This document shows, piece by piece, positions 11,148 through 36,691 of a stretch of 64,000 nucleotides of DNA. A program made the translations under genes and the position numbers. Every line of letters begins with the position of its first letter. Within the stretch, counting starts at the first letter, position 1. This stretch comes from Acidimicrobiia bacterium (GTDB lineage Bacteria; Actinomycetota; Acidimicrobiia; Acidimicrobiales; Aldehydirespiratoraceae), in NCBI GenBank assembly GCA_022819505.1, contig JAJEHD010000018.1, positions 627,663-691,662 on the forward strand. Direction: 5' to 3'. The notes beneath the pieces were generated by a model that searched no databases, was not told the origin of the DNA, and saw only the letters and a program-made list of their open reading frames with translations.

Positions 11148-13492
<2,345 letters not shown>

Positions 13493-13496
<4 letters not shown>

Positions 13497-13972: not shown

Positions 13973-14006
13973 TCGGACCTCGAGCGGCCCCGGCAAAGGG
14001 ACTGCC

Positions 14007-16301: not shown

Positions 16302-17219
16302 CTAGGCGGCGGCTCGGTACTCCTCGGAACTGCCGGGGAGGATTCCCAGGCCCGGATCGCCGGATGCGCCGAAGGCGGGGGGCCGAGGGTTCGACGTGCC
16401 CCACAGATCGGACTGCTCCGGCACGGCCTCCCATGTCCGCACAACCCAGTCCGGGCTGTCGGCGACCATCAGTTCGGTGGTGAACTCGCAGACGAAGCCC
16501 GCGGGGGAGCGGAAATAGGCGAAAGCGTTGTCGCCGGGCCCGTGGCGGCCCGGACCCCAGAGGATCTCATGGCCGTGGCGCATGGCCCGGCCCGTCGCCC
16601 GCATGAAGTCGTCGATATCGGCGCACTCGTAGGCCACGTGGTTCAGGCCTGACTGGGCCGTGGCGGCCAGAGCGATCTGGTGGTGGTAGCGGCTCGTGGT
16701 CATGAAGACGAGCCTGTCCTCCAGCCAGTCGGTGACCCGGAAGCCCAGCGCGGTGCAGTACCAGTCCGCGAGCCCGGCGTTGTCGCTGCTGTTGAACACG
16801 ACGTGGCTCACGTCGAGCGGCAGGCCCTTCCCGCGTTCATGCGGTGGCGGGGTACGGACTGGCGTGGCGGCCGAGATCGACAGCAGGTGGCCCTCAGGAT
16901 CGAACACCTCGAAGCCGTACCCGCCGTCCACCGTCGGGCCGGGACGGCCGACCAGATCTGCCTCCAGCCCGACGAGGTGATCGTGCATCTGATCGACCTG
17001 CTCGCGGCTATCGACCCCGAAGGCCACCGCATCGGCCCGATCCATGGGCGCCGGGCGAAGCGTGGTGACAGCGGGCTCGATCGATCCGGGTGCCGAGAAC
17101 CCGACGCAACCGTTCTCGCCGTCCTCGCGGACCAGCCCGAACACGTCGCACAGGAAGCGGGCCTGACCCTCTACATCCCGTACACCGAAACCGACGCTGC
17201 GCAACCGCAATGCACTCAC
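16302..17219 (-). CDS. Two-domain VOC-superfamily extradiol ring-cleavage dioxygenase (catechol 2,3-dioxygenase-like)
   Basis: 305 aa. Candidate Fe ligands lie in DVSHVVFN, LNHVAYEC and FVCEFTTE. Tandem glyoxalase-fold halves. Confidence 0.8.
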   Translation of the reverse strand: MSALRLRSVGFGVRDVEGQARFLCDVFGLVREDGENGCVGFSAPGSIEPAVTTLRPAPMDRADAVAFGVDSREQVDQMHDHLVGLEADLVGRPGPTVDGGYGFEVFDPEGHLLSISAATPVRTPPPHERGKGLPLDVSHVVFNSSDNAGLADWYCTALGFRVTDWLEDRLVFMTTSRYHHQIALAATAQSGLNHVAYECADIDDFMRATGRAMRHGHEILWGPGRHGPGDNAFAYFRSPAGFVCEFTTELMVADSPDWVVRTWEAVPEQSDLWGTSNPRPPAFGASGDPGLGILPGSSEEYRAAA

Positions 17220-17247
17220 CTCCGCCTAGCCGCTGGGCTCCGACCGG

Positions 17248-17799
17248 TCAGACGATAGTCCTGATACGGGGCGCATCCACGACCGCGTCCAGGAGCACGA
17301 CGAACCGCGACATGATCGAGAAGGAGTCGCCCGCCCGCCGGACGACGTCGAAGCGCTCGCCGGTCATGTCCCCCGACTGGGTGCCGTGACGAACCATCGC
17401 CACCCGGACGTTCAGCCGGGCCAGATAGGTGTCGGGCCGGTCCGTCGAGCGAACCCGGAGTGCCGACAGGAACCGGCGGGTGCGGACCGGGGGCCGATCG
17501 GCCCAAGACACCGCGATGTTGTCGTCGGTCAGGCGGGCCGCCCAGTTCTCGGAGATCGACTCTCGGGTCTCGTCCATGAACAGGGCCGACGGGTCGTAGC
17601 CGAGCTGGGGGTGATGGTCGGTCACCAGGGGCACGGGGATGAGGTACGTGAAGCCCTCATCGACGAGATCGAGCCACTCATCGAGACGCCACTCATCCAG
17701 CAACTCGGCCTCGTAGGCGTAGAAGAGGCCCAACTGCTGGTGGACCGGCAGCGGAGCAGGCCCTCCGGTGGTGGTCGGATGGACCCAGCGGGCCTTCAT
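17248..17799 (-). CDS. Rieske ring-hydroxylating dioxygenase beta (small) subunit
   Basis: Internal ATG of ORF 17248-18189 (MKARWVHP...), forming an ATGA overlap with the alpha-subunit stop. NTF2-like sequence: YAYEAELLDEWRLDEWLDL. Confidence 0.85.
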   Translation of the reverse strand: MKARWVHPTTTGGPAPLPVHQQLGLFYAYEAELLDEWRLDEWLDLVDEGFTYLIPVPLVTDHHPQLGYDPSALFMDETRESISENWAARLTDDNIAVSWADRPPVRTRRFLSALRVRSTDRPDTYLARLNVRVAMVRHGTQSGDMTGERFDVVRRAGDSFSIMSRFVVLLDAVVDAPRIRTIV

Positions 17800-19145
17800 C
17801 GAATGGACGCGGCCGGCTCGGCGACCGCCGTGAGCTCCATGCGGCGGCGCCACTCGGTGAGGAAGCCGCGGAGGGTGTGCTCGCTGCGGTCGGCGTCCTG
17901 CACATGGCCGGGCCACTCCAGGCCGTGAGCATCGGGATGGTGGGTGCCGGCCACATAGTTGTAGGACTGGTCGAGCCCGACCGGCCCGCTGTTGGCCTCG
18001 GCCATCCCGAGGAAGTTCTCGTTGTCGTCGAGTTCGAACATCCCGCCGGGGCCGTTGGTCCTGAGGTAGGCCCGCTGGGAACGCTCCTTCCATGTCTCGG
18101 AGGCGTCGGCCGGCACCAGGTGCCACCACCAGATCTCGGTCAAGCCCTCGTCGACAGGGACCTTGAGGGTGAGCCGGGTGTAGCGGCACATCGAGCCGGG
18201 TCCGTCGGTGGCGGTCTTGAAGTTCTCCAAGAAGGACAGGTTGGGGAACACGCTGCCGTGGGTGACCGAGGTGCGGGCCATGATGTCGACCTGGCCCGGT
18301 TTCAGGTTGCGCTCGATCTCACCCCAGAGCTCCTCCGGGTAGCCGAGGAACCCGGGCGGGTGGGTCTCGATGGGCAGGTGCTGGATCCGGATGGTGTGGC
18401 CGTTGCCGCACTGCACGGTGCGGCCGGGGAACTTCGGTCCGATGGGATCGCCGTAGGGGGCGACGTCCTCGGGGCTGGGGAAGAGCCCGAACCGCAGCGC
18501 GGTCTCGTGGGTGATCATGGTGTGGTAGCCGTCGCCGGAGAGGTTCTCGGTCTCGGCCTTCCAGTTGGCGCGGATGCGGGTCCGCACCGGCGAGCCCATG
18601 ACCTCGAACCCGTTGTCGAACTTCCCGAACAGCGCGTCGAAGTAGTAGGTCATGTGGCCCAGCGCGTCGCTGAGGGACGGGCCCCGGTGGTCCCATGTGG
18701 CGAAGATCAGCCCGTGCAGAGTCTCCACCCGGGCCGATCGGAGGTTGAACCGCGACTTGTCGAGGTCGGGGCCGTACACCTCCTTCTCGTAGGTCACGGC
18801 CCGGCATGCACCGTCGAGACCGTAGGCCCAGCCGTGGTAGGAGCATCTGTGGGCCTTGGTGTTGCCGCGGCCCGACCGGCAGAGCTTCACGCCCCGGTGC
18901 GAGCACGAGTTCAACATCACGTGGACACGGCCGTCGCGGTCGCGGTTCACGATTACCGGGTCGACGCCGAGGGGCCTGGTCACGTAGTCGCCCGGCTCGG
19001 GGATCTCGGAGACGTGTCCCACGAAGAACCATGACTTCTTGAAGATCGAGTCGAGCTCGCGGCGATGGATCTCGGGGTCGTGATAGATGCGCCGGCTGAC
19101 CCGGAACCCGCCGTCGGTGTCGATAAGTGCCATATCAGCTGCCAT
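17796..19145 (-). CDS. Rieske ring-hydroxylating dioxygenase alpha (large) subunit
   Basis: 449 aa. Rieske motif CSHRG...CSYHGW and mononuclear Fe motif DGYHTMITH (D-x2-H-x4-H). Confidence 0.9.
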   Translation of the reverse strand: MAADMALIDTDGGFRVSRRIYHDPEIHRRELDSIFKKSWFFVGHVSEIPEPGDYVTRPLGVDPVIVNRDRDGRVHVMLNSCSHRGVKLCRSGRGNTKAHRCSYHGWAYGLDGACRAVTYEKEVYGPDLDKSRFNLRSARVETLHGLIFATWDHRGPSLSDALGHMTYYFDALFGKFDNGFEVMGSPVRTRIRANWKAETENLSGDGYHTMITHETALRFGLFPSPEDVAPYGDPIGPKFPGRTVQCGNGHTIRIQHLPIETHPPGFLGYPEELWGEIERNLKPGQVDIMARTSVTHGSVFPNLSFLENFKTATDGPGSMCRYTRLTLKVPVDEGLTEIWWWHLVPADASETWKERSQRAYLRTNGPGGMFELDDNENFLGMAEANSGPVGLDQSYNYVAGTHHPDAHGLEWPGHVQDADRSEHTLRGFLTEWRRRMELTAVAEPAASIR

Positions 19146-19165
19146 TCGCCGGTTCTGTTTGCAAC

Positions 19166-20143
19166 TTAGTCCCGCATGATGCGCAGGGTCCCAATCTCGG
19201 GTGCGGGAATGCCCATTCCCCGCTCGTGGGCGGCCACCAGCAGCCGGTGGGCCAGGGCGAGGTCCTGCTCCACGGTGCCGATGGACTTGAACACCAGCGG
19301 CGCCTCGCCATCCGGCTCGTAGGGTGACTCGAGCCAGTCCCTCAACAGCAGGGCCCGGTCGGGGTCGAAGCCGAAGCGCTCGACCGCGTCGATGACGTCG
19401 CCCGGTTCGTGGCGGGCGTCCGCGCAGTCGAACACCACCTGCGAGGCTTCGGCGAAGACGTCACCGACCAGCTCCCGCTGATCGGGCCGGGTGGAGCCGA
19501 TGCCGGCCAAGAACTGGAGATGGTCGACCTGGCGGGCCTCGAGAAAGGCCGGGCCGAGAGATGACGTGGCGACATACAACTGCTGGGCGCCGGCCAGCGC
19601 GGCGTCGACCGAGTCCACCGGGTAGACGGGCACGCCCAGCACGGGGCCGTGCACCTCGCAGAACGCCTTCCGGTTGGCCGGCGTGGGACTGAACACGGCC
19701 ACCTCGGACAGGGTCGACACGGTGGCCACCGCCCGGAGTCCCTCCTTGGCCTCCTCGCCGCTGCCGATCACGGCCAGCTTCTTGGGCCGGCCGTCGTCGG
19801 CATGCTCGAAGGCCAGCGCGGCCGTCGAGGCGGTGCGGAGGCTGGTGATGCGGCGACCGTCGACGACCCCGATCATGTCGGCGGTGTCGCGGTCGAAGAC
19901 GCTGATGTGATAGCGCACCCGCCTGCCGACGCGGTGGAACTCCTTGTAGCCGACGATCCCGATCTCACCCAGGATGCCGGCCAGCACCCGCATCCAGGTG
20001 TGGCCGTCGCCGATCTGCACGCGTCCGGTCACGGCCTCGGCGCGGGCTGAGACCCGGGCCGCCTCCAACCCGACCTCCACCGAGGCCAACTTGTCGACGA
20101 GGTCGCCGTCGAGGAACAGGGGCGGATCACCCAGCGCGGTCAC
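19166..20143 (-). CDS. Ornithine cyclodeaminase / mu-crystallin-family NAD(P)-dependent enzyme
   Basis: 325 aa. ITSLRTASTAAL and VIGSGEEAK Rossmann segment. GTG start overlaps the upstream stop (GTGA). Confidence 0.75.
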   Translation of the reverse strand: MTALGDPPLFLDGDLVDKLASVEVGLEAARVSARAEAVTGRVQIGDGHTWMRVLAGILGEIGIVGYKEFHRVGRRVRYHISVFDRDTADMIGVVDGRRITSLRTASTAALAFEHADDGRPKKLAVIGSGEEAKEGLRAVATVSTLSEVAVFSPTPANRKAFCEVHGPVLGVPVYPVDSVDAALAGAQQLYVATSSLGPAFLEARQVDHLQFLAGIGSTRPDQRELVGDVFAEASQVVFDCADARHEPGDVIDAVERFGFDPDRALLLRDWLESPYEPDGEAPLVFKSIGTVEQDLALAHRLLVAAHERGMGIPAPEIGTLRIMRD

Positions 20144-21159
20144 TTCGGATTCCTGCCCACCCAGAACTCCTCGTCACCATCGTTGGTGACGTCGAGGCCG
20201 GCATCGACCGCGGCCTTGCGGATCATGCCCATCTGCGCCGCGTTGATGCGGGCCAGCGGTGCCCGGAGCGGCCCCCCGTTGAAGCCGACCAGCCAGCCCT
20301 GGTACTTCCAGATGCTCCGGGGCACCATCCCGGTGGTGGCCACGACGGGGCTGGCGGTGGCGCTGTTGGCCTTGCGGATGGGCGCGTTTCGCCAGTACAG
20401 GTCCATGCCGTCGTCCCAGGTGGCGGGATCGCTGAGCAGCTTGAGCATCTGGGGAACGCGGGGCCCGAAGGCCTCGTAGTTCGAGGTGCCCATGTACTTC
20501 ATGCCGTAGTGACGGATCCAGATCGGAGCGTTGTACTCCATGGGATCGGTCACGACGACCTGGTCGCCCAGGAGACGGAATACGTCGTCCATGCCTCCCG
20601 TGTAGGGCAGGCCGATCTCGTTCTTGATCCCCACCAGCATCGGACAGTCGGCCACCAGCCTCTCCAGCAGTCCCACCGGGAACGCGGCCGGGTGCAGTCG
20701 GGCGAAGTTCCACTGGTCGATCGCGAACAGCAGCACGCCCAGCGGCGAGCGGTCGATCATCGCCTTGCTGGCCTCGTAGAGCTCGTCGAGGGTGCGGGGG
20801 TAGAACGTCAGGGGGTAGGAGGGCAGCACCAGATCGGCCCCCAGCTCGGCGCCCCATTCGATGGTCAGCTGCTGTTCATCCCAGGTCGGCTGGGATGCCT
20901 GGACGACCACGACGAGGTCGCCGGCCGCGTCGGTGACGATCTCGAGCAGCCGCCGGTACTCCTCGAGCGCGGTGCCCCCCTCGCTGACGACCAGCACCGC
21001 TGCCATCCCGAGTTCCCGCTCCATCTCGACGTCGTGGCGGATGGCGACCTCGTTCAGCGTCGAGAGGTCGCTGGTGAAGGTGGGCAGGACGCAGCCGCAG
21101 CATCCCTTGAGATTCTCAAGAGCCCATGCCCGAGCCTCGGCTGCGGCGTACTCAGGCAT
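20140..21159 (-). CDS. DapA/DHDPS-family class I (Schiff-base) aldolase-like enzyme
   Basis: Frame of ORF 20140-21228. ATG 21159 is preceded by GGAGGG. VGIKNEIG contains the family's Schiff-base Lys position. Confidence 0.7.
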   Translation of the reverse strand: MPEYAAAEARAWALENLKGCCGCVLPTFTSDLSTLNEVAIRHDVEMERELGMAAVLVVSEGGTALEEYRRLLEIVTDAAGDLVVVVQASQPTWDEQQLTIEWGAELGADLVLPSYPLTFYPRTLDELYEASKAMIDRSPLGVLLFAIDQWNFARLHPAAFPVGLLERLVADCPMLVGIKNEIGLPYTGGMDDVFRLLGDQVVVTDPMEYNAPIWIRHYGMKYMGTSNYEAFGPRVPQMLKLLSDPATWDDGMDLYWRNAPIRKANSATASPVVATTGMVPRSIWKYQGWLVGFNGGPLRAPLARINAAQMGMIRKAAVDAGLDVTNDGDEEFWVGRNPK

Positions 21160-22102
21160 CCTGGATCCCTCCTGCCGGTTCGGCCGTCCGAGCAAGGAAT
21201 AGTCGCTCGGCATTGTGTCCGAGCACATTGGCTCGCTGCTCGTCGTTCAAGCCAAGTTCGTCCACGACGGCCAGGTGCCGCTGCACCGGCCACGGAATCG
21301 GCGGGCAGTCGGTGCCGAAGCAGATGTGCTCCGAGCCGACGGTCTCCAGGGCCATCCGCAGTGTCCGGCTCCCGAAGGTGACCGTGTCGAGGAAGAGCTT
21401 CTTGACGTGGCTCGACGGCGGCTCGGCCAGGTCCACCTCGCCCCATGGTCCCAGGGGGGCGTAGTTGCGCAGCTCGTGCCCGAAGTCGAGCCGATCGGCG
21501 ATGGTGGTGATGGCCCCGCCGGCGTGGGCGCAGAGCAGCCGGAGCTGCGGGAACTGCTCGTAGGTGCCGGTGAGGATGAAGCGGGCCAGCGTGACCGTCA
21601 TGTCCAGGGGGCGCCCGCACACCTCGCCCATGCGGTAGATGCCCATGAGGTCCTGGCCGACGGTCTGACCGCCGGGGTGCACGAAGATCGGTGCACCGAT
21701 GCTTGAGACGTAGTCCCAGAACCCGGCCGGGACACTGTCGAGATAGCAGTTCCGGTCGCTCGTGGGCAGAGCAAAGCCGGCCAGTCCGAGCTCTTCGGTG
21801 GCCCGCCGGGCCTCGTCGAGGTGCTCGGGGCCGCGCCAGGGGATCGCAGTGGCTAGACCGGCGAAGGTCCCCGGATGCTGGCGGGCCAGGTCTGCGACGA
21901 AGTCGTTGTAGGCGCGGACCTGCTCGATGTCGCCGGTGTCGAGGTCGCCGTACCAGATGTGAGGGTCGGAGACGATCGAGGTGGTGAGCCCGCCCTCCTC
22001 CATCCGTTCGAGCTGCCGGGGCACATCGAACAGATCGGGTGGCATGCGACCCTCCGGCTGCCATTGCGGAGGGAAGAGATGGACGTGACTGTCGACGATC
22101 AT
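21152..22102 (-). CDS. Amidohydrolase_2-family metal-dependent hydrolase/decarboxylase (ACMSD/IDCase-like)
   Basis: 316 aa. DSHVHLF (H-x-H), FVHPG, CAHAGG and FGTDCP are the metal-ligand pattern of the PF04909-type family. Confidence 0.8.
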   Translation of the reverse strand: MIVDSHVHLFPPQWQPEGRMPPDLFDVPRQLERMEEGGLTTSIVSDPHIWYGDLDTGDIEQVRAYNDFVADLARQHPGTFAGLATAIPWRGPEHLDEARRATEELGLAGFALPTSDRNCYLDSVPAGFWDYVSSIGAPIFVHPGGQTVGQDLMGIYRMGEVCGRPLDMTVTLARFILTGTYEQFPQLRLLCAHAGGAITTIADRLDFGHELRNYAPLGPWGEVDLAEPPSSHVKKLFLDTVTFGSRTLRMALETVGSEHICFGTDCPPIPWPVQRHLAVVDELGLNDEQRANVLGHNAERLFLARTAEPAGGIQDA

Positions 22103-22121
22103 GAGCTATGCCTCCCCTGGG

Positions 22122-24386
22122 TCATGCTCGCCTCGGGCGGTGCAGGGCGTGCCATAGGCGGGCCGAGCTCACCGAGCTGGTGAGCACCTCGGCCCCGTCA
22201 CCGACGGCGTCGGCTACGCCGTTGGCGACCGCGCCGAGTGAGCCGACCATCCCGGCTTCGCCGCCGCCCTTGATGCCGAGCGGGTTGGATCCGCTGCCGT
22301 GCTCGATGATGGTGACCTCCACGTCGGGCAGCTCGGCCGCGGTGGGCATCATGTAGTCGGCGAAGGTCACCGACAGCGGCTGGCCGTGCTCGTCATACGC
22401 GACCTCCTCGAACAGCGCTCCACCGATGCCCTGCGCGGCGGCGCCCGCCAGCTGGCCCCGGAGGAGCCGCGGGTTGACGGCTCGCCCCACGTCATGGGCC
22501 AGCGCGAACCGGTCCACCCGGGCCCTGCCGTCGGCCGGGTTCACCGACACCGAGCACACCGCCCCCCCGAAGGAGGCGGTCAGCCCCTCCTTCTCGAACC
22601 GGCCGCGGGTGGGACCGATGTCGCCGAGCCCAACCGATCGGTCGCCCGGCGCGGTCGCGGTGCCGTCGCGGAACTCGACGTCGCCGGGCCCGCATCCGAG
22701 GAGCGGCGCGGCCTTGGCTTTCATCTCGTCGACTGCAGCCGCGATGGCGTTCCCGGCCAGCACGGTGGAACGGCTGGCGAAGGACCCGAAGCCCTGCGGC
22801 ACCTCGGCAGTGTCATGGAACTCGACGGTCACGCCGCTGAGAGGCACGTCGAGAAGCTCGGCCGCGATCTGAGCCAGCGCCGTCTCGACGCCCTGGCCCA
22901 GCGATCCGACACCGGCCCGAACGACGACATTCCCCGCGCCACCGATCACCTCGACCTCTTCGAATGGTCCGACCGCGGCGAACTCGATGTAGGCCGCGAT
23001 GCCGACGCCGGCATGCTGTCCATCGGCTCGCGCCTGTCGCTGCTCGACCCGCATCCGGTCGTAGCCGGCCCCGTCGAGCATCTGATCGAAGGCCGTAACG
23101 AAGTCGCCGCCCTGGTACATGATCGGCATCACCGCCCCCGAACCGGGTCCCGGCATGAAGCTGAACGGCATCGACTCGGCCGGAATCAGGTTGCGGCGCC
23201 GCAGGTCGGCCGGCTCCATCTCCAGCTCGGCCGCGAGGATGTCGACCATGCGCTCGCGGACAAACGTGGCCTCGGTCATGCCCGGGCCGCGGTAGGTGCC
23301 GACCGGAGTGCGGTTCGTCAGCACCGCGTCTAGATCCATGCTGAACGCCGGCCACTCATACGGGCCGGGAAGGTGGACCATGGGGAGCACGACCGGCAGC
23401 AGGCCCTGGGTCCTGACGTAGGCGCCGTGATCGCACCATCCCCGTACCCGGAAACCCAGCATCCGGCCGTCGGCGCCGGCCGCCAGCTCGAAGTCGTGCT
23501 CCTGTTCCCGGGCATGGTTGGTGGCGACCATGTGCTCCCAGCGGTCCTCGATCCACTGGACGGGCCTCTCGAGGCGCCGGGCCAGCAGCGGGATGAGGAT
23601 GTCCTCGGGGTAGGGCTCGCCACGCGTCCCGAACCCGCCCCCCACTTCAACCTCGATGACGCGGACGTCGGTCAGCTCGAGCCCCAGCACGCGGCTCAGC
23701 AGGGCCCGGGTGAAGTGCTTGACCTTGGCGCCGCCCCACACCGTGAGCACCCCTGATCCGGGGTCGTAGTCAGCCGCCAGTCCGCGGGTCTCCATCGGCG
23801 CCGCGGCGAGGCGATGGACTCGCAACCGGCGGCGAACCACCACGTCGGCCCGCGCGAACGCCGCGTCGATGTCCCCGTAGCGGTAGGCGAGACGGCCGAT
23901 GGTGTTGCTTCCGAAGCTCTCGTGCACCAACGGCTGGGAGGACTCCGTCGAGTTGGCTGGATCGAGGACCGGCTCCAACTCGTCGAGATCGATGGAGACG
24001 AGTTCGGCCGCGTCCTCGGCCACATAGGGGTCATCGGCCACGACCACCGCGACCGGTTCGCCGACGTAGCGGACGACATCGGCGGCCAAGGGTGCCTGCA
24101 GCACCGCGTTGGCCTCGGGCGACTCGGCGAACGGGAGCCGGATCGGTATCCGGATGTCGTCGATGTCGTCGGCGGTGATGACCGCCACGACGCCACCGAC
24201 CCGGAGGGCCTCGGAAGTGTCGACGCCGAGCAGCCGGGCGTGGGCCGACGGGCTCCGCACCACCCGGGCGTACACCTGGCCCTCGAGCCGGATGTCGGCC
24301 ACGTAGGTTCCTTCGCCGGTGAGCAGCTCCCGGTTCTTGCGCCTGGGCGCGGGGCTGCCTATGAGTCCACCGCCGGGAGCGCTCAC
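22122..24386 (-). CDS. Xanthine-dehydrogenase-family molybdopterin-binding large subunit (L3)
   Basis: Frame of ORF 22122-24512. GTG 24386 overlaps the medium-subunit stop (GTGA). LLTGEGTYVADI, GTYRGPGM loop, GIKGGGEAG. Confidence 0.9.
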   Translation of the reverse strand: MSAPGGGLIGSPAPRRKNRELLTGEGTYVADIRLEGQVYARVVRSPSAHARLLGVDTSEALRVGGVVAVITADDIDDIRIPIRLPFAESPEANAVLQAPLAADVVRYVGEPVAVVVADDPYVAEDAAELVSIDLDELEPVLDPANSTESSQPLVHESFGSNTIGRLAYRYGDIDAAFARADVVVRRRLRVHRLAAAPMETRGLAADYDPGSGVLTVWGGAKVKHFTRALLSRVLGLELTDVRVIEVEVGGGFGTRGEPYPEDILIPLLARRLERPVQWIEDRWEHMVATNHAREQEHDFELAAGADGRMLGFRVRGWCDHGAYVRTQGLLPVVLPMVHLPGPYEWPAFSMDLDAVLTNRTPVGTYRGPGMTEATFVRERMVDILAAELEMEPADLRRRNLIPAESMPFSFMPGPGSGAVMPIMYQGGDFVTAFDQMLDGAGYDRMRVEQRQARADGQHAGVGIAAYIEFAAVGPFEEVEVIGGAGNVVVRAGVGSLGQGVETALAQIAAELLDVPLSGVTVEFHDTAEVPQGFGSFASRSTVLAGNAIAAAVDEMKAKAAPLLGCGPGDVEFRDGTATAPGDRSVGLGDIGPTRGRFEKEGLTASFGGAVCSVSVNPADGRARVDRFALAHDVGRAVNPRLLRGQLAGAAAQGIGGALFEEVAYDEHGQPLSVTFADYMMPTAAELPDVEVTIIEHGSGSNPLGIKGGGEAGMVGSLGAVANGVADAVGDGAEVLTSSVSSARLWHALHRPRRA

Positions 24387-25246: not shown

Positions 25247-25740
25247 GGGTCGTCCCGGTTCGCGGCCAGAGCGTTCAGAGCAGCTTGAAACACGGGCACC
25301 GCACCGGTGCAGCGGCACAGATTCGAGGAGACCACCTCCAGGATCCGGTCCCGTCCCGCCTCCGGTTCGGAGCGCAGCAGGCCCTCGATCAGCATGAGGA
25401 AACCGGGTGTGCAGAACCCACACTGCAGGGCGTCGTTGTCGTCGAAGGCCTGCTGCAGGGTGCTGAGTTCGTCGCCGTCAGTGAGGCTCTCGACCGTCTC
25501 TATGGTGTGGCCCTGCCCCTGGACGGCCAGCATCAGGCACGAGCGGACGGCGGCGCCGTCCAGCAGGATCGTGCAGGATCCGCACACGCCGTGCTCGCAG
25601 CCGAGGCGCACGCTGGTGAAGCCGGCGTCGCGCAGAGCGTCGGCCAGGGTCCGCCTGGGCGGGACGCGAACCTTCCGTGGCGCGCCGTTCACGGTCAGGG
25701 TGACGGCAACCGAATCATGGGGGTCGAGCCATCCAGCCAT
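25243..25740 (-). CDS. Molybdenum-hydroxylase [2Fe-2S] small subunit (second set)
   Basis: 165 aa. CEHGVCGSCTI and ALQCGFCTPG...CRCTG. Confidence 0.9.
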   Translation of the reverse strand: MAGWLDPHDSVAVTLTVNGAPRKVRVPPRRTLADALRDAGFTSVRLGCEHGVCGSCTILLDGAAVRSCLMLAVQGQGHTIETVESLTDGDELSTLQQAFDDNDALQCGFCTPGFLMLIEGLLRSEPEAGRDRILEVVSSNLCRCTGAVPVFQAALNALAANRDDP

Positions 25741-25747
25741 CAGGCGG

Positions 25748-26755: not shown

Positions 26756-26789
26756 CGGCTTTCCCCCGTCTGGGTGAGGTCTACATGAA

Positions 26790-27896
26790 TCAGGGCGCCT
26801 TGGACATGTCCACGATGGCGGCGACCATGCCACCGCCCGCGGGACCCTGCTGGAGGGCCGCCACCGAGCAGTACACGGCCGGATCCCCGATGGCGGCGGC
26901 CGCCACCGCACCGACCGCGCCCTTGGTGTGGTGGGTGTGGTGGATGTCGGAGTCGTTGATCGACACGAGCCGGCGACCCCGCAGCCGCCCCGACGGGTCG
27001 GTCTCACACTTGATGAAGCAGTTCACGACGGCATCCCCCAGGTCGCTGGGATGGGGTCGGTCGGGCAGGTCCAGCCCGGCCGAGCGGATGGCGTCGTAGA
27101 TCCCGTCGAAGTCGAGGGCGTCGCGCATGACCGAATGGCCGATGCGGAAGTCGCCGCCGGCGCCGGCCCTGTTGCCGACCACCACGATCTGGGCGGGGTC
27201 CTGCTCGACGCCCGACGAGCAGGACGCCACCGACGAGTACAGGTCGAGATCCGCGGCGATCTGCTCGGGGCGGGGAAGATCGAACTCGCCGACGGCATAC
27301 CCGATGCCGAGCGCGGCGGTGGCGTTGGACACCGCCATCGACTCCATAGTGTCGGTCATCACCACGTCCTTGCCCCGGCTGCGGGCGTCCTCGATGCGCT
27401 CCCGGGTCAGCAGCGGGGTCTTGGACTGCACGAAATGGACGTCGGCGGGGTCGGTGATGCCCGCGTCGGCCATCGCCACCCGCACGCCCTCGGCCACCTT
27501 CTCCACCATCGGCAGCCGGCCGATCTCCTCGGGCAGGATCGCCTCCGACATCGTCACGCCCACCGCCAGCCGCTTCTCGTCGCCGGCGCTGCCGTTACCC
27601 GGAACCCGGGCGAAGACATTCATGTGGGGCGCGATCACGCCGTCGGTGCCGCCGGACCACACGATGGGCATGCGGTCGATCTCCGACGGTGACCGGGTTC
27701 CGTGCGTGTTCAGGAAGTCACGGAAGACGCGGTCGGCCAGGATGCGGGAGAAGTCGTTGACCCCGCCGTTGCCCTCGGTCTTGCCGATCACGCCGATGAT
27801 CTGATCGGCGGTGAACGAGCCGGCCTCGATCTCGGCCAGCAGCCCGCCCATGTCGCTGACGAACTCGAAGGGGATCTTGCGTACAACGATGGGCAT
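26790..27896 (-). CDS. Ring-opening amidohydrolase of the cyanuric acid hydrolase (AtzD/TrzD) / barbiturase family
   Basis: 368 aa. Recalled family blocks are all present and in order: GKTEGNGGVND, VWSGGTDGVIAPH, HFVQSKTPLLT, SMAVSNATAALG, CFIKCETDPSG, NDSDIHHTHHTKGA, QQGPAGGG. Confidence 0.85.
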   Translation of the reverse strand: MPIVVRKIPFEFVSDMGGLLAEIEAGSFTADQIIGVIGKTEGNGGVNDFSRILADRVFRDFLNTHGTRSPSEIDRMPIVWSGGTDGVIAPHMNVFARVPGNGSAGDEKRLAVGVTMSEAILPEEIGRLPMVEKVAEGVRVAMADAGITDPADVHFVQSKTPLLTRERIEDARSRGKDVVMTDTMESMAVSNATAALGIGYAVGEFDLPRPEQIAADLDLYSSVASCSSGVEQDPAQIVVVGNRAGAGGDFRIGHSVMRDALDFDGIYDAIRSAGLDLPDRPHPSDLGDAVVNCFIKCETDPSGRLRGRRLVSINDSDIHHTHHTKGAVGAVAAAAIGDPAVYCSVAALQQGPAGGGMVAAIVDMSKAP

Positions 27897-28634
27897 CTAG
27901 CCGTCTCCTGTGTTGTGGTCGACTCCGAAGAAGAGCGACTGCAGCGCCGCGTCCTGCAGGACCTCCTGGCTCGACAGGGGCTCGCCCAGCACGCCGGCCT
28001 GCATCACGTAGACCCGATCGCAGTGGGGCAGGCAGACGAGCGGGCTCTCCTCGATCACCCACATGAGGGTCGTGCCCGAGTCACGGATACGCAGGATGTC
28101 GTCGATCCGCTCCCGCACGATGGAGGGAGCCAGTCCTGTGGTGGGCTCGTCCAGGGCCAGGAAGCGGGGGCCGGTGATCATGGCGCTGGCCAGTGCCAGC
28201 ATCTGGCGCTCGCCGCCCGACAGCGTGCTGGCGTTCTGTCCCATCCGGTCGCGCAGGGCGGGGTACGACTCGGCTACCTCGCCGACGCGCCGGCGGATCT
28301 CGACCGGGCTGGATCCCCGCAGCGCCACCGACAGGTTGTCGCGCACGCTCAAGTCGGGGAAGGTGTTGTTCTCCTGGGGCACGTAGCCCATGCCAAGCTC
28401 GGCCAGGCTGTGCGCGGGGTGGCGCCGGAGGTCGGCGCCCTCGAAACTGACGGTCCCGCCCGCGGTCGGCAGCAGGCGGAAGATCGTCTTCAGCAGCGTC
28501 GACTTGCCGGCACCGTTGGGCCCGACCACGGCGACGATCTCCCCGGCGGTCACCTCGAGGTCGACGCCGTGCAGCACCGGGAATCCGCCGTAGCCGGCCT
28601 CTAGAGCCTCGACGCGTAGGACAGCCTCGCTCAT
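27897..28634 (-). CDS. ABC transporter ATP-binding protein, LivF-like
   Basis: 245 aa. Walker A GPNGAGKST, signature LSGGERQ, Walker B FLALDEP. Confidence 0.9.
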   Translation of the reverse strand: MSEAVLRVEALEAGYGGFPVLHGVDLEVTAGEIVAVVGPNGAGKSTLLKTIFRLLPTAGGTVSFEGADLRRHPAHSLAELGMGYVPQENNTFPDLSVRDNLSVALRGSSPVEIRRRVGEVAESYPALRDRMGQNASTLSGGERQMLALASAMITGPRFLALDEPTTGLAPSIVRERIDDILRIRDSGTTLMWVIEESPLVCLPHCDRVYVMQAGVLGEPLSSQEVLQDAALQSLFFGVDHNTGDG

Positions 28635-29410
28635 GGGCTCCCGTCCTCTCCGCCGTCCTCGCCGAGGTACACCCGCATGACGTCGGGGTCGGCGGCGATC
28701 TCGGCGGGAGGCCCCGAGGCCAGCAGCGCGCCCCGATCGAGCACGTGCACCTCGTCGGCGATCTGCATGAGGAACGAGAGGTTGTGGTCGATGATCAGGC
28801 TGCCCAGCCCCCGCTCGTCGCAGAGGCGCCGCACGAGCTGCGACAGCCGTCCGATGTTGGCCGGAGCGACCGCGGCGGCCGGCTCGTCGAGCAGCAGCAT
28901 CTTGGGCTCGGCCATCAATGAGCGGGCGAACTCGAGAAGCTTGCGGTCACCGGCTGACAGCTCGTCGGTACGGACATCGAGCAGATCGGCCATGCCCAAC
29001 TCTGCGGTGATCTCCTCGGCACGGGCCCCGGACGCCCGCTCATGGTCCCGGGCTCTGCGGCTGAGTCCGAGAGCCCCGACCGGGGTCTCGACGAAGTGGG
29101 GGGTGGCCGCGGCGAGCATGCTCTCGCGCACGGTGAGAGTGGTGAACCCGACCGGGGTCTGGAAGGTCCTGATGAGCCCGAGCTCGGCCACCCGCCACGG
29201 CGGCAGCCCGTCGATGCGCTGATCGCCGAAGCTGATCGAGCCCCGATCCGGGGGGTCGAATCCGGTGATGGCGTTGAACAGGGTGGTCTTTCCGGCGCCG
29301 TTGGGCCCGATCAGCGCGGTGACCCTGTCCTGGGGCATCACCGCCGACACGTCGTCGACTGCGACCACGCCACCGAAGGTCTTGCGGACGGCGTCGAGCA
29401 CGAGGTCCAT
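28631..29410 (-). CDS. ABC transporter ATP-binding protein, LivG-like
   Basis: Internal ATG 29410 of ORF 28631-30313 (MDLVLDAVRKTFGG). GPNGAGKTT, LSAGDRK, LLLDEP. ATGA overlap with the downstream LivF-like start. Confidence 0.9.
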   Translation of the reverse strand: MDLVLDAVRKTFGGVVAVDDVSAVMPQDRVTALIGPNGAGKTTLFNAITGFDPPDRGSISFGDQRIDGLPPWRVAELGLIRTFQTPVGFTTLTVRESMLAAATPHFVETPVGALGLSRRARDHERASGARAEEITAELGMADLLDVRTDELSAGDRKLLEFARSLMAEPKMLLLDEPAAAVAPANIGRLSQLVRRLCDERGLGSLIIDHNLSFLMQIADEVHVLDRGALLASGPPAEIAADPDVMRVYLGEDGGEDGSP

Positions 29411-29418
29411 GCCTGCCC

Positions 29419-30411
29419 CTATCCGCCCGAGCCTTGTGCGGCTCCGGCTGGGCGCGAGTCTCCTGCGGACCGTCCGGCCGGGCGGTTGCCCGCCCCGAAG
29501 GCGCTCCGCTCCGAGAACAGTCCGTCCGGGCGGAAGCGCAGCACCAGCACCAGCAGCAGGCCCACCAGGAACGGCTCGATGGCGACCAGGATGTTGATAT
29601 GGGAGGGATCGACCTCGATGAGGCCCACCGCCTCGGTGAACACGATCAGGACGAAGGCTCCGGCGAGGCCTCCCCGGATGCTGCCCAGGCCCCCGATGAC
29701 CAGGGCGGTCCACACCGTGAACGTGATGCCCGGCGCGAACAGCTGCGGTGAGACGGCCCGGATGTAGAAGAGGTACACGGGGGCGGTGGCCCCGATGAGG
29801 ACTCCGGCCAGTATGAAGGTCTTGATCCTCATCCGGTTGACCCGCTTGCCCAGCGCGAGGGCGACCGCCTCGTTGTCGCGGGCGGCCCGGAGCGTCCGAC
29901 CGAACGGTGAGATCCCGATCTGGCGGGTGACGACATACATGACGGCCGCGGCCGCCACCGCGATGCCGAGCAGGACGTAGTTGTAGTCGCGGCCGGTGAC
30001 GAAGCTGTCGAAGGGGCGGTTGATGTTGGGCACCCCCAGTGTGCCCCGCGTCAGGTCGGCCTGGATGATCACCAACTGGCGGATGATCTCCGCGAAGGCC
30101 AGCGTGGTGATGAGGAAGTACTCGCGCCTCAATCGCAGCGCGGGCGCGCCAATGGCGAAGGCCACCAGACCGGTGAACAGCGCCGACAGCGGCCAGGCCA
30201 CCCACATCGAAAGCCCGGGCGCGAACCGCATGTCGAGATCCGGGTCGCCCGCGGTGAGGATGACGTAGCAGTAGCTGCCCGATGCCAGCAGCCCCGCGAT
30301 GCCCAGGTCCCACATCCCGCCCCAGCCGGACTCGACGTTGAGCGCCATGGCCAGGCTGGCGTAGATCGCGGCCAGCGTCAGCACGCCCACCCAGAAGATG
30401 GGATTGGTCAC
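29419..30411 (-). CDS. Branched-chain-amino-acid-type ABC permease, LivM-like
   Basis: 330 aa, multi-span hydrophobic. Positioned between the LivH-like and LivG-like genes. Confidence 0.85.
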   Translation of the reverse strand: MTNPIFWVGVLTLAAIYASLAMALNVESGWGGMWDLGIAGLLASGSYCYVILTAGDPDLDMRFAPGLSMWVAWPLSALFTGLVAFAIGAPALRLRREYFLITTLAFAEIIRQLVIIQADLTRGTLGVPNINRPFDSFVTGRDYNYVLLGIAVAAAAVMYVVTRQIGISPFGRTLRAARDNEAVALALGKRVNRMRIKTFILAGVLIGATAPVYLFYIRAVSPQLFAPGITFTVWTALVIGGLGSIRGGLAGAFVLIVFTEAVGLIEVDPSHINILVAIEPFLVGLLLVLVLRFRPDGLFSERSAFGAGNRPAGRSAGDSRPAGAAQGSGG

Positions 30412-30442
30412 GGCGTTGCCGCCTTGGTCTCTACGGTGGTGA

Positions 30443-31312
30443 TCATGCCACCACCGCGTCCTTGCGACGCTGGATCGACAGGATCCCCTCAGGCCTCAGT
30501 ATCAGCACCGCGACCAGCACCCCGAAGGCCACCACCGGCCGGTAGGCGGTGGGGATGAACAGCGCGGAGACGTCCATCATGATCCCCAGCAGCAGCCCGG
30601 CCAGGATCACGCCGGTGATGCTGCGCAGGCCTCCCAGAACCGCGGCGGCCAGCACGATCAGGATGTTGTGCCAGCCGATCTCGGTGTTGACCGCGCCGAG
30701 CACGCCGAGCATCACCCCGGCCATGGCCCCGAACGCCGAGCTGATGAACCAGATCGTGTTGGACACGGTGCGCACCGGCACGCCCCTGACCCGGGCCAGG
30801 TCGTCGTTGCTGGCCACGGCCCGGATGGCCCGGCCCAGTCCGGTGGAGTTGAGGAACAGCTGGAGCGCGGCGATGCTGCCGAACGCCAGCCCGATGATCA
30901 CGAGCTCGTTGGTGGCGATGCCGATGCCCGCAAAGCGATGGAGGCTGCCCGACACGTCGGGGTAGAAGCGGGCCTGCGTGCCGAACAGCGCCAGGATGGC
31001 GGCGTACATCATCAGCGCCAGCCCGATGGAGGTGAACAGCAGCACCGTGCCGCCCTGGTGGCGCACCGGCTGGAAGAAGATCGCGGACAGCACAACCCCC
31101 AGGGCGCCGAGCCCGACCACGGTGATGGCCCCGGCCAGGAAGATGTTCATGCCGTAGGTGTCCACCAGCACCACCCCGACGAACGCGCCCAGCGCCATCA
31201 TCTGGGCGTGGGCGATGTTGAGGAAGTTCTCGGTCTGGCGCACCAGCGCGAAGCCGAGGGTCGCCACGGCCAGGATGCTGCCGGTGACGATCCCGAAGAC
31301 GACGTTCTGCAC
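30443..31312 (-). CDS. Branched-chain-amino-acid-type ABC permease, LivH-like
   Basis: 289 aa, multi-span hydrophobic, with the typical LivH N-terminus (VFGIVTGSILAVATLG...NIAHAQMMALGAF). Confidence 0.85.
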   Translation of the reverse strand: MQNVVFGIVTGSILAVATLGFALVRQTENFLNIAHAQMMALGAFVGVVLVDTYGMNIFLAGAITVVGLGALGVVLSAIFFQPVRHQGGTVLLFTSIGLALMMYAAILALFGTQARFYPDVSGSLHRFAGIGIATNELVIIGLAFGSIAALQLFLNSTGLGRAIRAVASNDDLARVRGVPVRTVSNTIWFISSAFGAMAGVMLGVLGAVNTEIGWHNILIVLAAAVLGGLRSITGVILAGLLLGIMMDVSALFIPTAYRPVVAFGVLVAVLILRPEGILSIQRRKDAVVA

Positions 31313-31336
31313 GGCGGACTCCCCGGGGAGGGACCT

Positions 31337-31370
31337 GGCGGCCGGCCCGAAAATCTACGGGCCGGCCGCC
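31337..31370. promoter_or_regulatory. Strong intercistronic stem-loop between the binding-protein and permease genes
   Basis: Perfect 13-bp inverted repeat GGCGGCCGGCCCG / CGGGCCGGCCGCC with the 8-nt loop AAAATCTA, inside the 79-bp gap of an otherwise tightly packed operon. Confidence 0.6.
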
Positions 31371-31391
31371 GCGGTCAGGCTCGCGTCCGGA

Positions 31392-32639
31392 CTAGGACGG
31401 CTTGACCAGCGTCGGGTCGAGCTCGATGTTCTCCCGGACGGCCCAGTCCCCGTCCTGCACGTGGATCACGGCCATCACTGGCGACAGCAGGTTGCCCACG
31501 CTGTTGAGGTTCAGGTTGGACGTGGTGCCGTGGTAGTCGATGTCGTTGCCGGCCTCGAGCTCGGCCAGGCCCTGGGCGTAGGAGAACACCTCGACGCCGG
31601 GCGGGTTGGCGATCTCCGGGATGGCGGCGGCCACTGCCGCTCCGTCGGTGGTGCCGGCCTTCGCCGTGGCCAGGCCCAGGATGATGTACTGGTCGTACTG
31701 CCAGGCGTCGTAGAAGGCGATCTCCGGCGGATCACCGATCTTCTCCTCGAACCTGGGCACGTAGGCGTCCCACGCCGGGTTGTTCACGGTGTCGTAGGCC
31801 GTTGCACCGACTATGGCGCTGGCCCCCGGCACGCCGCTCACGATCTCGGCGATCTCCGGGCTGAGAAGGTCGGTCGTGAAGATCATGGGAACGTCGGTGT
31901 AGCCCCGTCGCTGCCACTCGTTGAGGATCGGCACGCCCGTCTCGAAACCGGCCGCGATGTAGACGGCGTCGGGACCGGACTCGAAGGCCTGGGCCACCTG
32001 GGCCGCGTAGGTGGTCTCCCCGGCGTTGAAGCGGACATCCTCGGTGATGGTCCCACCCATCTGCTCGGTGAAGACGGCCTTGAACACATTGGCGGGACTC
32101 TCGGTGCCCTCGCTCAGCTCGACCAGCATGGCCACGTTGCGGTACCCCTCGTCGCGTGCCACCTGGGCGCCGACGATGCCGTTGTCGGTATCGGAGGGGA
32201 TGATGCGGAACACCATGTCACCACCGGTGCTGTCGAGTTCCGTCGTGCCGCAGGTGCTGCAGATCGTGGGGATCTGCAACTCGTGCACCGTGTCGAAGAT
32301 GGCGATCATCCCGTCGGACTCGATGCCGCCCAGGGCGTGGATTCCATCGACCTCGGTCAGCTCGGCGAAGCCCGACACCGCGCCCTCAGGCGTGGATCCG
32401 TTGTCCTCGACGACCAACTCGACGCTGCGCCCCAGCACGCCGCCGCCGGCATTGAGTTCCTCGACCGCCACTTCCGCCGCGGCCAGAGCCCAGTGGCCCC
32501 ACGGGCCGTAGTCCCCGGACTGTCCGTTGAGGAAGCCGTACTTGACGGGCCCCTCATCGGCAGCATCACCGCTATCACCGCTGCAAGCTGCGGCGGCCAC
32601 GAGGCCGACCGCGAGCAGCGCCACGAGTACGCGCTTCAC
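31392..32639 (-). CDS. Liv/amide-urea-type periplasmic-binding-protein-fold substrate-binding lipoprotein
   Basis: Frame of ORF 31392-32684. GTG 32639 is preceded by AAGGAG. Signal peptide plus lipobox VKRVLVALLAVGLVAAAACSG. Confidence 0.85.
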   Translation of the reverse strand: MKRVLVALLAVGLVAAAACSGDSGDAADEGPVKYGFLNGQSGDYGPWGHWALAAAEVAVEELNAGGGVLGRSVELVVEDNGSTPEGAVSGFAELTEVDGIHALGGIESDGMIAIFDTVHELQIPTICSTCGTTELDSTGGDMVFRIIPSDTDNGIVGAQVARDEGYRNVAMLVELSEGTESPANVFKAVFTEQMGGTITEDVRFNAGETTYAAQVAQAFESGPDAVYIAAGFETGVPILNEWQRRGYTDVPMIFTTDLLSPEIAEIVSGVPGASAIVGATAYDTVNNPAWDAYVPRFEEKIGDPPEIAFYDAWQYDQYIILGLATAKAGTTDGAAVAAAIPEIANPPGVEVFSYAQGLAELEAGNDIDYHGTTSNLNLNSVGNLLSPVMAVIHVQDGDWAVRENIELDPTLVKPS

Positions 32640-32738
32640 TTTTTTCTCCTTCCGGCTACCGGGTCGGGACGACCCAGCCCCCATCTGCTAGCCCATAGCG
32701 TTGCACCAATTTCGCCGTCTAGCCAGTCCGGAGCCAAA

Positions 32739-36650: not shown

Positions 36651-36691
36651 GGGCAGCCCGCAATTCACATCAAGCAAAGGAGCGCTTCCCC

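Follow-up and report, generated by a model that had tools for sequence, protein, structure and literature searches.

The 64,000-nucleotide window analysed here, the whole stretch of contig JAJEHD010000018.1 available to us, carries on its minus strand a genuine, intact, tightly packed and conserved unit of 16 genes, which is a fusion of two separately distributed modules: genes 1-7 (module A), encoding an importer, a barbiturase-type amidohydrolase and a Rieske mono-oxygenase, and genes 8-16 (module B), an aromatic-ring-cleavage cassette. Gene content, protein families, modularity and conservation of the unit can be read directly from the genomes compared. Building on them, we propose, with a probability of roughly 0.5, that it is a composite operon for the catabolism of N-heteroaromatic compounds, in which the cassette would remove a fused or attached carbocyclic ring and a barbiturate-type ring would be opened last; substrate, order of steps and the connection between the modules are the conditional elements of this proposal. 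The source is a sponge-associated member of the Acidimicrobiia (Aldehydirespiratoraceae). Near-identical loci are found in metagenome-assembled genomes (MAGs) labelled Candidatus Aldehydirespirator, Acidimicrobiaceae or Acidimicrobiales, several of which are sponge metagenome bins, and the family (UBA11606) takes in a sponge-symbiotic lineage (PMC11706023).

The 16 open reading frames fill positions 16302-32639 and show a third-position G+C content of 0.85-0.96 in the called frame, in a window with about 69% G+C. Gene calling was repeated independently on an identical metagenome contig (L001, ENA ERZ23495076) and returned the same 16 genes, confirming the 16 co-directional minus-strand genes of a first-pass annotation that had been made from the sequence alone; the chance of 16 genes all lying on the same strand is about 2^-15. 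In operon order, the junctions measure 79, 31, 8, -4, 0, 34, 7, -4, -4, 19, -8, -4, 32, -4 and 37 nt. Five of them are 4-nt ATGA/GTGA overlaps, matching the five shared start and stop codons annotated before, and one is an overlap of 8 nt. The range of -8 to +34 nt given earlier for all gaps except the 79-nt one applies if gene 16 begins at its longer GTG start (17219), which would shrink the last gap to 28 nt, but not with the start at 17210, for which the maximum is +37 nt. At the lower boundary, a convergent plus-strand gene (14007-16298) ends 3 nt past the stop of gene 16; at the upper boundary, a divergent PNPOx-like gene begins 99 bp upstream of the start of gene 1, whose GTG at 32639 is preceded at a distance of 6 nt by the ribosome-binding site GGAAGGAG. 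A scan limited to sigma-70-type consensus sequences found none in the divergent control region and, inside the unit, no promoter- or terminator-like sites beyond shuffle expectation. From packing and gene order, a single 16-gene transcript is predicted. The single transcription unit proposed in the first-pass annotation holds up as one compact co-directional unit, but one that consists of two fused modules with separate distributions.

These distributions emerged when all window proteins were compared by tblastn with 80 genome loci containing a barbiturase homologue, one genome per species. Every close relative has genes 1-7 in this order, apart from L017 and L018, both of which lack gene 7. 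Beyond the window's own population (L001), genes 8-16 are found only in L007, L010, L011, L015 and L080. The first-pass annotation had recommended a search for the same gene order elsewhere and had allowed that the genes might never co-occur outside this genome; in fact, the 16-gene order recurs in these five other species-level genomes, and a 14-gene version occurs in two metagenome relatives (L102, L106). There, the cassette keeps its molybdenum hydroxylase (Mo-hydroxylase) large subunit and lacks the small and FAD subunits, which suggests that subunits are shared with the neighbouring convergent Mo-hydroxylase operon, termed M-L-S-L after its FAD, large, small and second large subunits. In L012, L013, L019 and L020, genes 8-16 are missing from the locus and the gene 7 stop codon adjoins or overlaps that of the convergent CoxL gene, indicating that genes 8-16 were inserted or deleted cleanly as a 9.4-kb block, with essentially no surplus DNA. 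The operon is known in versions of 7, 14 and 16 genes, and in sister species these offer a clean natural experiment on how the insertion of a cassette extends a pathway.

Within module A, genes 1-5 encode a Liv-type ABC importer, whose substrate-binding protein (SBP) has a signal peptide and an AAAC lipobox-like cysteine and matches urea and branched-chain amino acid SBP models only weakly. Solved structures were uninformative about its ligand, returning only generic Leu/Ile/Val-type binders at no more than 65 bits. The amidohydrolase encoded by gene 6 matches its family over the full length (PF09663, 437 bits, residues 5-363; TIGR02714, 456 bits), and its nearest solved relative is the barbiturase of Rhodococcus erythropolis (5HWE; 450 bits, 60% identity), while cyanuric acid hydrolases (CAHs) score at most 300 bits. 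In its 'VQSKTPLLT' and 'SCSSG' segments, Lys and Ser, respectively, line up with the dyad residues of AtzD and 5HWE, corresponding to the central Ser-Lys dyad defined for CAH (Ser226/Lys156; PMC4051656). At the site of CAH Arg188/AtzD R194, where a non-Arg residue marks the barbiturase subgroup and Gln has been reported (PMC4051656), Asn191 of gene 6 aligns with an Asn in 5HWE and with Arg in four CAHs; the reported Gln is thus matched by neither gene 6 nor 5HWE in our alignment. Judged by sequence, gene 6 is of the barbiturase type rather than a CAH, which sharpens the earlier assignment to the AtzD/barbiturase family. It also clears the NCBIfam equivalog cut-off for cyanuric acid amidohydrolase (418 versus 360 bits), a name that we regard as an artefact of that model. 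Gene 7, previously called VanA-like and correctly so by its domains, shows CxH...CxxH and DxxHxxxxH motifs and has as its nearest structures the methylxanthine N-demethylase NdmA and the saxitoxin hydroxylase SxtT (about 134 bits).

Module B opens with three subunits of the xanthine oxidase (XO) family, which together carry two [2Fe-2S] domains, an FAD domain and molybdenum cofactor domains. The large subunit, gene 10, is nearest to KdhL of the nicotine pathway (7DQX, 514 bits) and to quinoline 2-oxidoreductase (365 bits), stays below all NCBIfam equivalog cut-offs, as do all three Mo-hydroxylase large subunits of the window, and is 37-46% identical to CoxL proteins of related cassettes elsewhere, which does not exceed the 42% shared with its window paralogue and makes those proteins candidate orthologues at most. 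We could dismiss an identity as CO dehydrogenase: none of the three large subunits has the AYxCSFR (form I) or AYRGAGR (form II) motif, and they score 427-543 bits against cut-offs of 950-991. The solved relatives of gene 11 are LigW, ACMSD and uracil-5-carboxylate decarboxylase (50-70 bits). For gene 13, the best NCBIfam matches are pyrroline/piperideine-2-carboxylate reductases, below cut-off. Genes 14 and 15 together make up a two-subunit Rieske dioxygenase, with CxH..CxxH and a catalytic domain in the alpha subunit, accompanied by a beta subunit; the alpha subunit is nearest to the Rhodococcus naphthalene dioxygenase 2B1X (284 bits), and gene 16 to an uncharacterised VOC protein (3B59, 180 bits).

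The most divergent protein of the cassette is encoded by gene 12, which has no Pfam match at E < 0.001, PF00701 included. Its homologues are proteins of about 340 residues, many of which carry a precomputed PF00701 match that is weak where graded. The AlphaFold2 (AF2) model (pLDDT 89, pTM 0.90) was matched by Foldseek to NAL (sialic acid lyases), dihydrodipicolinate synthase (DHDPS) and PhdJ with TM scores of 0.70-0.74 and a probability of 1.0, at 15-17% identity. K179 ('VGIKNE', at the end of strand 175-179) and Y115 ('PSYP') are invariant across 32 homologues and correspond to K161 and Y133 of DHDPS by motif position, not by superposition. Given the NAL/DHDPS barrel and the invariant Lys and Tyr, gene 12 is classed as a divergent Schiff-base lyase. 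Every family named in the first-pass annotation is recovered by Pfam and NCBIfam profiles (including the CoxS/M/L, amidohydrolase_2, ornithine cyclodeaminase (OCD)/mu-crystallin, Rieske alpha/beta and extradiol calls), except that its DapA-like Schiff-base enzyme has no Pfam match of its own, but fits in fold and motifs.

Genes of the 16-gene unit and associated features of the window
Feature	Position	Strand	Basis or remark
Gene 1: Liv/HAAT-type substrate-binding protein (Peripla_BP_6)	31392..32639	-	PF13458, E = 8e-43
Gene 2: LivH-type permease	30443..31312	-	PF02653 (BPD_transp_2)
Gene 3: LivM-type permease	29419..30411	-	PF02653 (BPD_transp_2)
Gene 4: LivG-type ATPase	28631..29410	-	PF00005 + PF12399
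Gene 5: LivF-type ATPase	27897..28634	-	PF00005
Gene 6: ring-opening amidohydrolase, barbiturase clade (AtzD/TrzD 'Toblerone' family)	26790..27896	-	PF09663
Gene 7: alpha-only Rieske mono-oxygenase (VanA_C type), last of module A	25748..26755	-	PF00355 + PF19112
Gene 8: Mo-hydroxylase [2Fe-2S] small subunit, first of module B	25243..25740	-	PF01799 + PF00111
Gene 9: Mo-hydroxylase FAD subunit	24383..25246	-	PF00941 + PF03450
Gene 10: Mo-hydroxylase molybdopterin large subunit	22122..24386	-	PF01315, PF02738, PF20256
Gene 11: Amidohydro_2, ACMSD/LigW/IDCase non-oxidative decarboxylase group	21152..22102	-	PF04909; N-terminal HxH
Gene 12: divergent NAL/DHDPS-fold class I (Schiff-base) lyase	20140..21159	-	AF2 + Foldseek, conserved Lys/Tyr
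Gene 13: ornithine cyclodeaminase/mu-crystallin family NAD(P)-dependent enzyme	19166..20143	-	PF02423
Gene 14: Rieske dioxygenase alpha subunit (naphthalene/phenylpropionate group)	17796..19133	-	PF00355 + PF00848
Gene 15: Rieske dioxygenase beta subunit	17248..17799	-	PF00866
Gene 16: two-domain type I extradiol (VOC) dioxygenase	16302..17210	-	PF00903, two stretches
Stem-loop after the SBP gene	31337..31370	-	perfect 13-bp stem, 8-nt loop, no U-tract
Divergent control region, SBP gene/PNPOx-like gene	32640..32738		99 bp; putative promoter
M-L-S-L Mo-hydroxylase operon (FAD, large, small, second large), outside the unit	10262..16298	+	convergent
VanA2-type Rieske oxygenase and AndAc-like alpha-only Rieske oxygenase	35682..37951	+	divergent, upstream of module A

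The cassette also has a life outside the barbiturase locus. Examining the contigs that encode homologues of the DHDPS-like protein, together with a metagenome scan, we found cassette homologues, without barbiturase, on some two dozen further contigs of high GC content from metagenomes and genomes (G+C 0.54-0.73). Their usual order is Rieske alpha, Rieske beta, small ORF, DHDPS-like, OCD-like, PF04199 cyclase, CN-hydrolase and extradiol dioxygenase; GntR and CMD genes in the recurrent cluster are transcribed divergently to the main operon, an aldehyde dehydrogenase and a short-chain dehydrogenase/reductase (SDR) often accompany it, and Amidohydro_2 and CoxSML lie nearby in many loci. A second variant has an additional isochorismatase-family amidase and hydantoinase/acetone-carboxylase-like subunits. 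With its window counterpart, the DHDPS-like protein shares up to 62-64% identity, OCD up to 56-58%, Rieske alpha up to 53%, the extradiol dioxygenase up to 44% and Amidohydro_2 up to 63%. The OCD-like gene is adjacent to the DHDPS-like gene in all loci and usually overlaps it, so that the two are translationally coupled and their products may form a complex, and the PF04199 cyclase is present in 20 of the 24 sufficiently long loci outside the sponge lineage. The cyclase, CN-hydrolase, aldehyde dehydrogenase, small ORF and SDR of these related cassettes have no homologue within the 64-kb window.

More distant proteobacterial plasmid loci (35-40% identity in the DHDPS-like protein) combine VOC, OCD-like and DHDPS-like genes with an aldehyde dehydrogenase (SSADH) and a flavin mono-oxygenase, indicating that the extradiol/DHDPS-like/OCD-like trio is the deep core of the cassette. 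These loci carry no functional annotation, and a Rhodococcus koreensis plasmid homologue of the DHDPS-like gene (57%) has none of the partner genes. Literature searches yielded no description of this core, which is widespread and may be the means by which bacteria get rid of ring-fission products that contain nitrogen.

In two loci of another lineage (L104 and L105; G+C 0.60, 54-82% identity), the transporter with the VanA-like gene, the M-L-S-L genes with cupins and CN-hydrolase, and the cassette are found together in rearranged form. The VanA-like gene directly follows LivF, with no barbiturase between them, and the cassette, divergent from the M-L-S-L/cupin/CN-hydrolase genes, reads DHDPS-like, OCD, Rieske alpha, Rieske beta, extradiol dioxygenase, SDR, CoxS, L, M and Amidohydro_2.

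In the oxidative pyrimidine route, a dehydrogenase converts uracil or thymine to barbiturate, barbiturase opens the ring, and ureidomalonase acts on the product. The surroundings of barbiturase genes fit such a sequence of hydroxylation and ring opening: in the 60 barbiturase loci of at least 15 kb, Mo-hydroxylase genes lie within 10 kb in 30 cases and an adjacent CMD-family gene is seen in 27. M-L-S-L genes stand beside barbiturase homologues in L012, L013, L019-L021, L025, L030 and L033, with identities of 49-70% in other Acidimicrobiia and in MAGs of Burkholderiales (L025, L030, L033 among them). The two large subunits of the window's own M-L-S-L operon are full-length paralogues that are 37% identical to each other. 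By this context, the M-L-S-L operon is a candidate for a uracil/thymine-dehydrogenase-type enzyme. The first-pass annotation had named the Mo-hydroxylase within the unit; genes 8-10 indeed encode one, but the most conserved Mo-hydroxylase partner of barbiturase is the convergent operon outside it. Barbiturase has been treated as a rare enzyme of few soil bacteria (PMC4051656). The clade found here spans sponge-associated Acidimicrobiia, Burkholderiales and Alphaproteobacteria, regularly beside Mo-hydroxylases, and its neighbourhoods put definite genes to the oxidative pyrimidine route, which is poorly characterised.

A module-A-like cluster in a Roseisalinus-like alphaproteobacterium (L141) has CoxL (57% identity), paired small cupins, a CN-hydrolase, a Liv-type transporter, a VanA-like oxygenase (51% identity) with an adjoining NdmD-type reductase, a PF04199 cyclase and CMD, and no barbiturase, so that cyclase and barbiturase look like alternative ring openers in systems that are related in other respects. 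Homologues of cyclase, CN-hydrolase and CMD are common to A-like (L141) and B-like clusters, and barbiturase, CMD and CN-hydrolase occur together in L023.

For the composite pathway we envisage the following course. The substrate would be taken up by the Liv-type ABC system. Going by the chemistry of their families, the NdmA-like Rieske mono-oxygenase may carry out an N- or C-demethylation or a hydroxylation, and the Mo-hydroxylases a hydroxylation next to a ring nitrogen, possibly also the oxidation of an aldehyde; the barbiturate-type ring would be made by a Mo-hydroxylase, with the convergent M-L-S-L enzyme as the conserved partner, as in the oxidative pyrimidine pathway. The alpha/beta Rieske dioxygenase would cis-dihydroxylate the carbocyclic ring, extradiol cleavage would follow, and the Schiff-base lyase would free pyruvate from the 2-oxo-acid side chain in the manner of NahE and PhdJ. 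The OCD-like NAD(P)H enzyme may reduce a 2-oxo- or 2-imino-acid intermediate, its exact step being the weakest part of the scheme. The ACMSD/IDCase-like enzyme would then decarboxylate a leftover carboxyl group, and barbiturase would hydrolytically open the resulting 2,4,6-trioxopyrimidine (barbiturate-type) ring. A worked example that uses every gene would lead from (N-methyl)quinazoline-2,4-dione via its 7,8-diol and 8,8a-cleavage to pyruvate and 5-formylbarbiturate, and on through 5-carboxybarbiturate and barbiturate to ureidomalonate, although we consider it quite improbable that this particular compound is the substrate.

Lying directly behind gene 7, module B would share the promoter of module A. 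Most economically, it would strip the benzenoid ring from a pyrimidine-containing compound and pass the barbiturate-type ring on to module A. That module B feeds module A is suggested by the absence of the cyclase/CN-hydrolase pair here and by the position of the cassette behind the barbiturase: it begins 7 nt after gene 7 and lacks the genes that elsewhere apparently open and finish the surviving N-ring. Parts of module A, M-L-S-L and the cassette, moreover, co-localise a second time, in another arrangement, in L104/L105. The N-heterocyclic substrate postulated in the first-pass annotation gains support from these results. That it knew of no described pathway with this combination is in line with the literature searches: those for the gene combination found no match, and those on barbiturase gene clusters, on kynurenate and homarine catabolism and on sets of OCD, DHDPS and Rieske genes returned nothing that fits. 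The combination is conserved, built from known kinds of catabolic modules and, apparently, undescribed.

Several points weigh against the composite pathway. A Rieske ferredoxin and reductase, a dihydrodiol dehydrogenase, an aldehyde dehydrogenase and a regulator are absent from the 64-kb window, whose only ferredoxin is a 62-residue Fer4_15/Fer4_13 protein (8718-8906, plus strand) beside a pair of cupin genes, and the window has no recognisable ureidomalonase, although alpha/beta hydrolases, an Amidohydro_1 protein and a CMD protein are encoded nearby. With redox partners, dehydrogenases, ureidomalonase and regulator missing, the pathway as drawn is either incomplete or depends on functions supplied from elsewhere. 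The OCD-like enzyme has no secure role in it, although no other gene accompanies the DHDPS-like gene as constantly, and 60% identity to a barbiturase does not prove that gene 6 has the same substrate. The predicted single transcript and the role of M-L-S-L are read from sequence and from gene context, respectively, and the scan for internal signals covered one type of consensus. Finally, modules A and B each occur without the other, and because of this, co-transcription may reflect an insertion rather than a shared pathway.

This last point leads to the strongest rival explanation, in which two unrelated pathways would share one transcript: module A as a self-contained oxidative pyrimidine system (for uracil/thymine or an N-methyl-pyrimidine), and module B as a cassette for another aromatic amine or N-heterocycle, expressed by read-through after it had come to lie in the one gap available, that between two convergent operons. 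L012-L014 and L016-L021 have module A by itself, the cassette homologues elsewhere manage without barbiturase, and the insertion or deletion is clean, with no spare DNA. In L007, the module B proteins are 85-96% identical to those of the window, compared to 94-99% for module A, which fits a different history of the two and speaks against a shared pathway as well. However, without cyclase, CN-hydrolase, aldehyde dehydrogenase and SDR the cassette of the window does not look self-sufficient, module A, M-L-S-L and module B co-localise again, rearranged, in a second lineage, and the A-like and B-like clusters draw on the same cyclase, CN-hydrolase and CMD families. We therefore hold two separate pathways to be possible but on the whole rather unlikely.

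According to a second rival, the substrates would be pyridine- or quinoline-carboxylates or lactams (of the kynurenate, quinolone, picolinate or homarine type) instead of pyrimidines, gene 6 having evolved towards a different cyclic amide or imide that arises once a ring has been cleaved. The solved proteins nearest to gene 10, KdhL and quinoline 2-oxidoreductase, point in this direction, as do the cassettes elsewhere with cyclase and CN-hydrolase, some of them with an isochorismatase-family amidase and Amidohydro_2; we take these pairs to resemble HpoH/HpoI and PicC/NicF of pyridine pathways, respectively. The cyclase that replaces barbiturase in the module-A-like cluster of L141 would agree with it too. 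Yet gene 6 is still 60% identical to barbiturase and has its non-Arg residue, and the window contains no cyclase, CN-hydrolase or NicX-type gene, making this explanation improbable. An s-triazine/cyanuric acid system, with gene 6 as a CAH as in atz/trz, can appeal to the NCBIfam score mentioned above, but is highly implausible for a sponge symbiont in which gene 6 is far nearer to barbiturase than to any solved CAH and lacks the CAH-conserved Arg, and in which no biuret hydrolase, AtzE/AtzF or allophanate hydrolase is found among the annotated genes of the window.

Among known systems, the oxidative pyrimidine pathway of Rhodococcus erythropolis JCM 3132 is closest to the unit by homology, through the 60% identity of gene 6 to its barbiturase, and Mo-hydroxylase genes as the commonest barbiturase neighbours fit its uracil hydroxylation and subsequent ring opening. 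The unit differs from it in the added Liv-type importer, the NdmA-like Rieske oxygenase, the nine genes for carbocyclic ring cleavage, the unusual M-L-S-L Mo-hydroxylase and the lack of a ureidomalonase candidate. With NdmA/NdmB of Pseudomonas putida CBB5, gene 7 shares the Rieske + VanA_C architecture, NdmA being its best solved relative, but at only about 134 bits, and the NdmD-type reductase present in the homologous L141 cluster is missing from the window. The naphthalene/phenanthrene upper pathway (NahAc/Ad, NahB-F/PhdJ) resembles the cassette in its Rieske alpha/beta and extradiol dioxygenases and in an enzyme of the NAL/DHDPS fold, PhdJ being among the structural neighbours of gene 12; the window, however, lacks dihydrodiol dehydrogenase, isomerase and aldehyde dehydrogenase and encodes in their place an OCD-like enzyme, a Mo-hydroxylase and a decarboxylase, and gene 12 is only 15-17% identical to PhdJ. 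In the hpo precedent, a trihydroxypyridine hydrolase of the cyclase family opens a trihydroxy-azine ring and an omega-amidase then hydrolyses the amide. The PF04199 cyclase and CN-hydrolase of most cassettes outside the sponge lineage recall this hpo (2-hydroxypyridine)/nicotine lower pathway, whereas both are absent from the window, where barbiturase takes the ring-opening role.

By its overall logic, the closest relative is the lum operon of Nocardioides simplex for lumichrome/riboflavin, which combines pyrimidinedione hydrolysis, heterocycle decarboxylation, hydroxylation by an XO-family enzyme, Rieske and extradiol dioxygenases and a retro-aldol step to pyruvate (PMC12746152). Its components are different: an 80-kDa hydrolase, LumH, takes the place of barbiturase and the thiamine diphosphate (ThDP)-dependent LumK/L that of Amidohydro_2, its XO, LumJ, is a single chain of 140 kDa, the first step is carried out by the P450 LumU, and no OCD-like enzyme is reported (PMC12746152). 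Comparing families with the enzyme list of that paper, we could rule out that the unit is a lum operon, as the window has no ThDP enzyme, 80-kDa hydrolase or single-chain XO.

The operon points to sponge symbionts that use N-heterocyclic metabolites of host or microbial origin as sources of nitrogen and carbon. In classical meta-pathways, a hydrolase, a hydratase and an aldolase act on the ring-fission product. More speculatively, and in our view with the odds well against it, the cassette would represent an undescribed lower pathway for benzo-fused or aryl-substituted N-heterocycles, in which the DHDPS-fold lyase and the OCD-like reductase handle an N-bearing fission product, and which in sponge symbionts has been wired to barbiturase; there, a benzopyrimidine, for instance a metabolite of the (N-methyl)quinazolinedione type, or an alkaloid of related kind from host or microbes, would be degraded to barbiturate and further to urea-level nitrogen. 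Should this be true, genes still missing for orphan activities, among them the 7,8-dihydroxylation and cleavage of kynurenate, could lie in the cassettes of other high-GC bacteria.

The 79-nt gap behind the SBP gene (31313-31391) was said in the first-pass annotation to hold a perfect hairpin, and it does. A 96-nt stretch around it folds with -55 kcal/mol (z = -3.5), a stability reached by none of 200 shuffled sequences, and of 19 loci examined, 18 (17 of the 18 relatives) keep a hairpin at the same position, with stems of differing sequence. Such hairpins are common behind binding-protein genes, and this one probably serves as an mRNA stabiliser or attenuator that raises the SBP relative to the membrane components.

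Further genes accompany the two operons. Of the Rieske pair upstream of module A, which is kept beside it in close relatives, the AndAc-like enzyme scores 467 bits on the AndAc anthranilate dioxygenase model (cut-off 750). A heme-oxygenase-like gene (CADD/PqqC-like, PF14518; 38458-39198, minus strand) and an alpha/beta hydrolase gene are also kept beside module A in cassette-less relatives. On the other side, two genes for small cupin-like paralogues of 124 residues (8928-9302 and 9305-9679, plus strand; 35% identical, motifs 'VVWPGVGA' and 'GGPCPPD') accompany the M-L-S-L operon, as they do in L105 and in the alphaproteobacterial L141. The sister-sample contigs L003, L004 and L005, which stem from the window's own population, show breaks or variation within the M-L-S-L operon, one large subunit being truncated in L005 and an MFS gene replaced in L003; these differences indicate strain-level variation around the island. 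In the longer barbiturase loci, the CMD-family gene (PF02627) directly follows barbiturase in about 27 of 60 (L022-L059, barbiturase homologues of 69-76% identity), a pairing for which literature searches found no description, and in Poriferisocius sponge symbionts the neighbours of barbiturase also include RidA, CoxS/M/L and Amidohydro_2.

Farther out in the window, a cytochrome P450 of 404 residues (43505-44719, minus strand) with an adjacent SDR lies 35 kb from the 62-residue ferredoxin. A dip in G+C to 0.664, with a GC-skew spike of 0.148, at 50000-52400 coincides with a DUF222/HNH endonuclease-type gene and may mark a small mobile element edging the catabolic island. A PIN-domain toxin gene is located at 691-1119 on the minus strand, and in sister contigs an RHH-type antitoxin-like ORF is called upstream of it.

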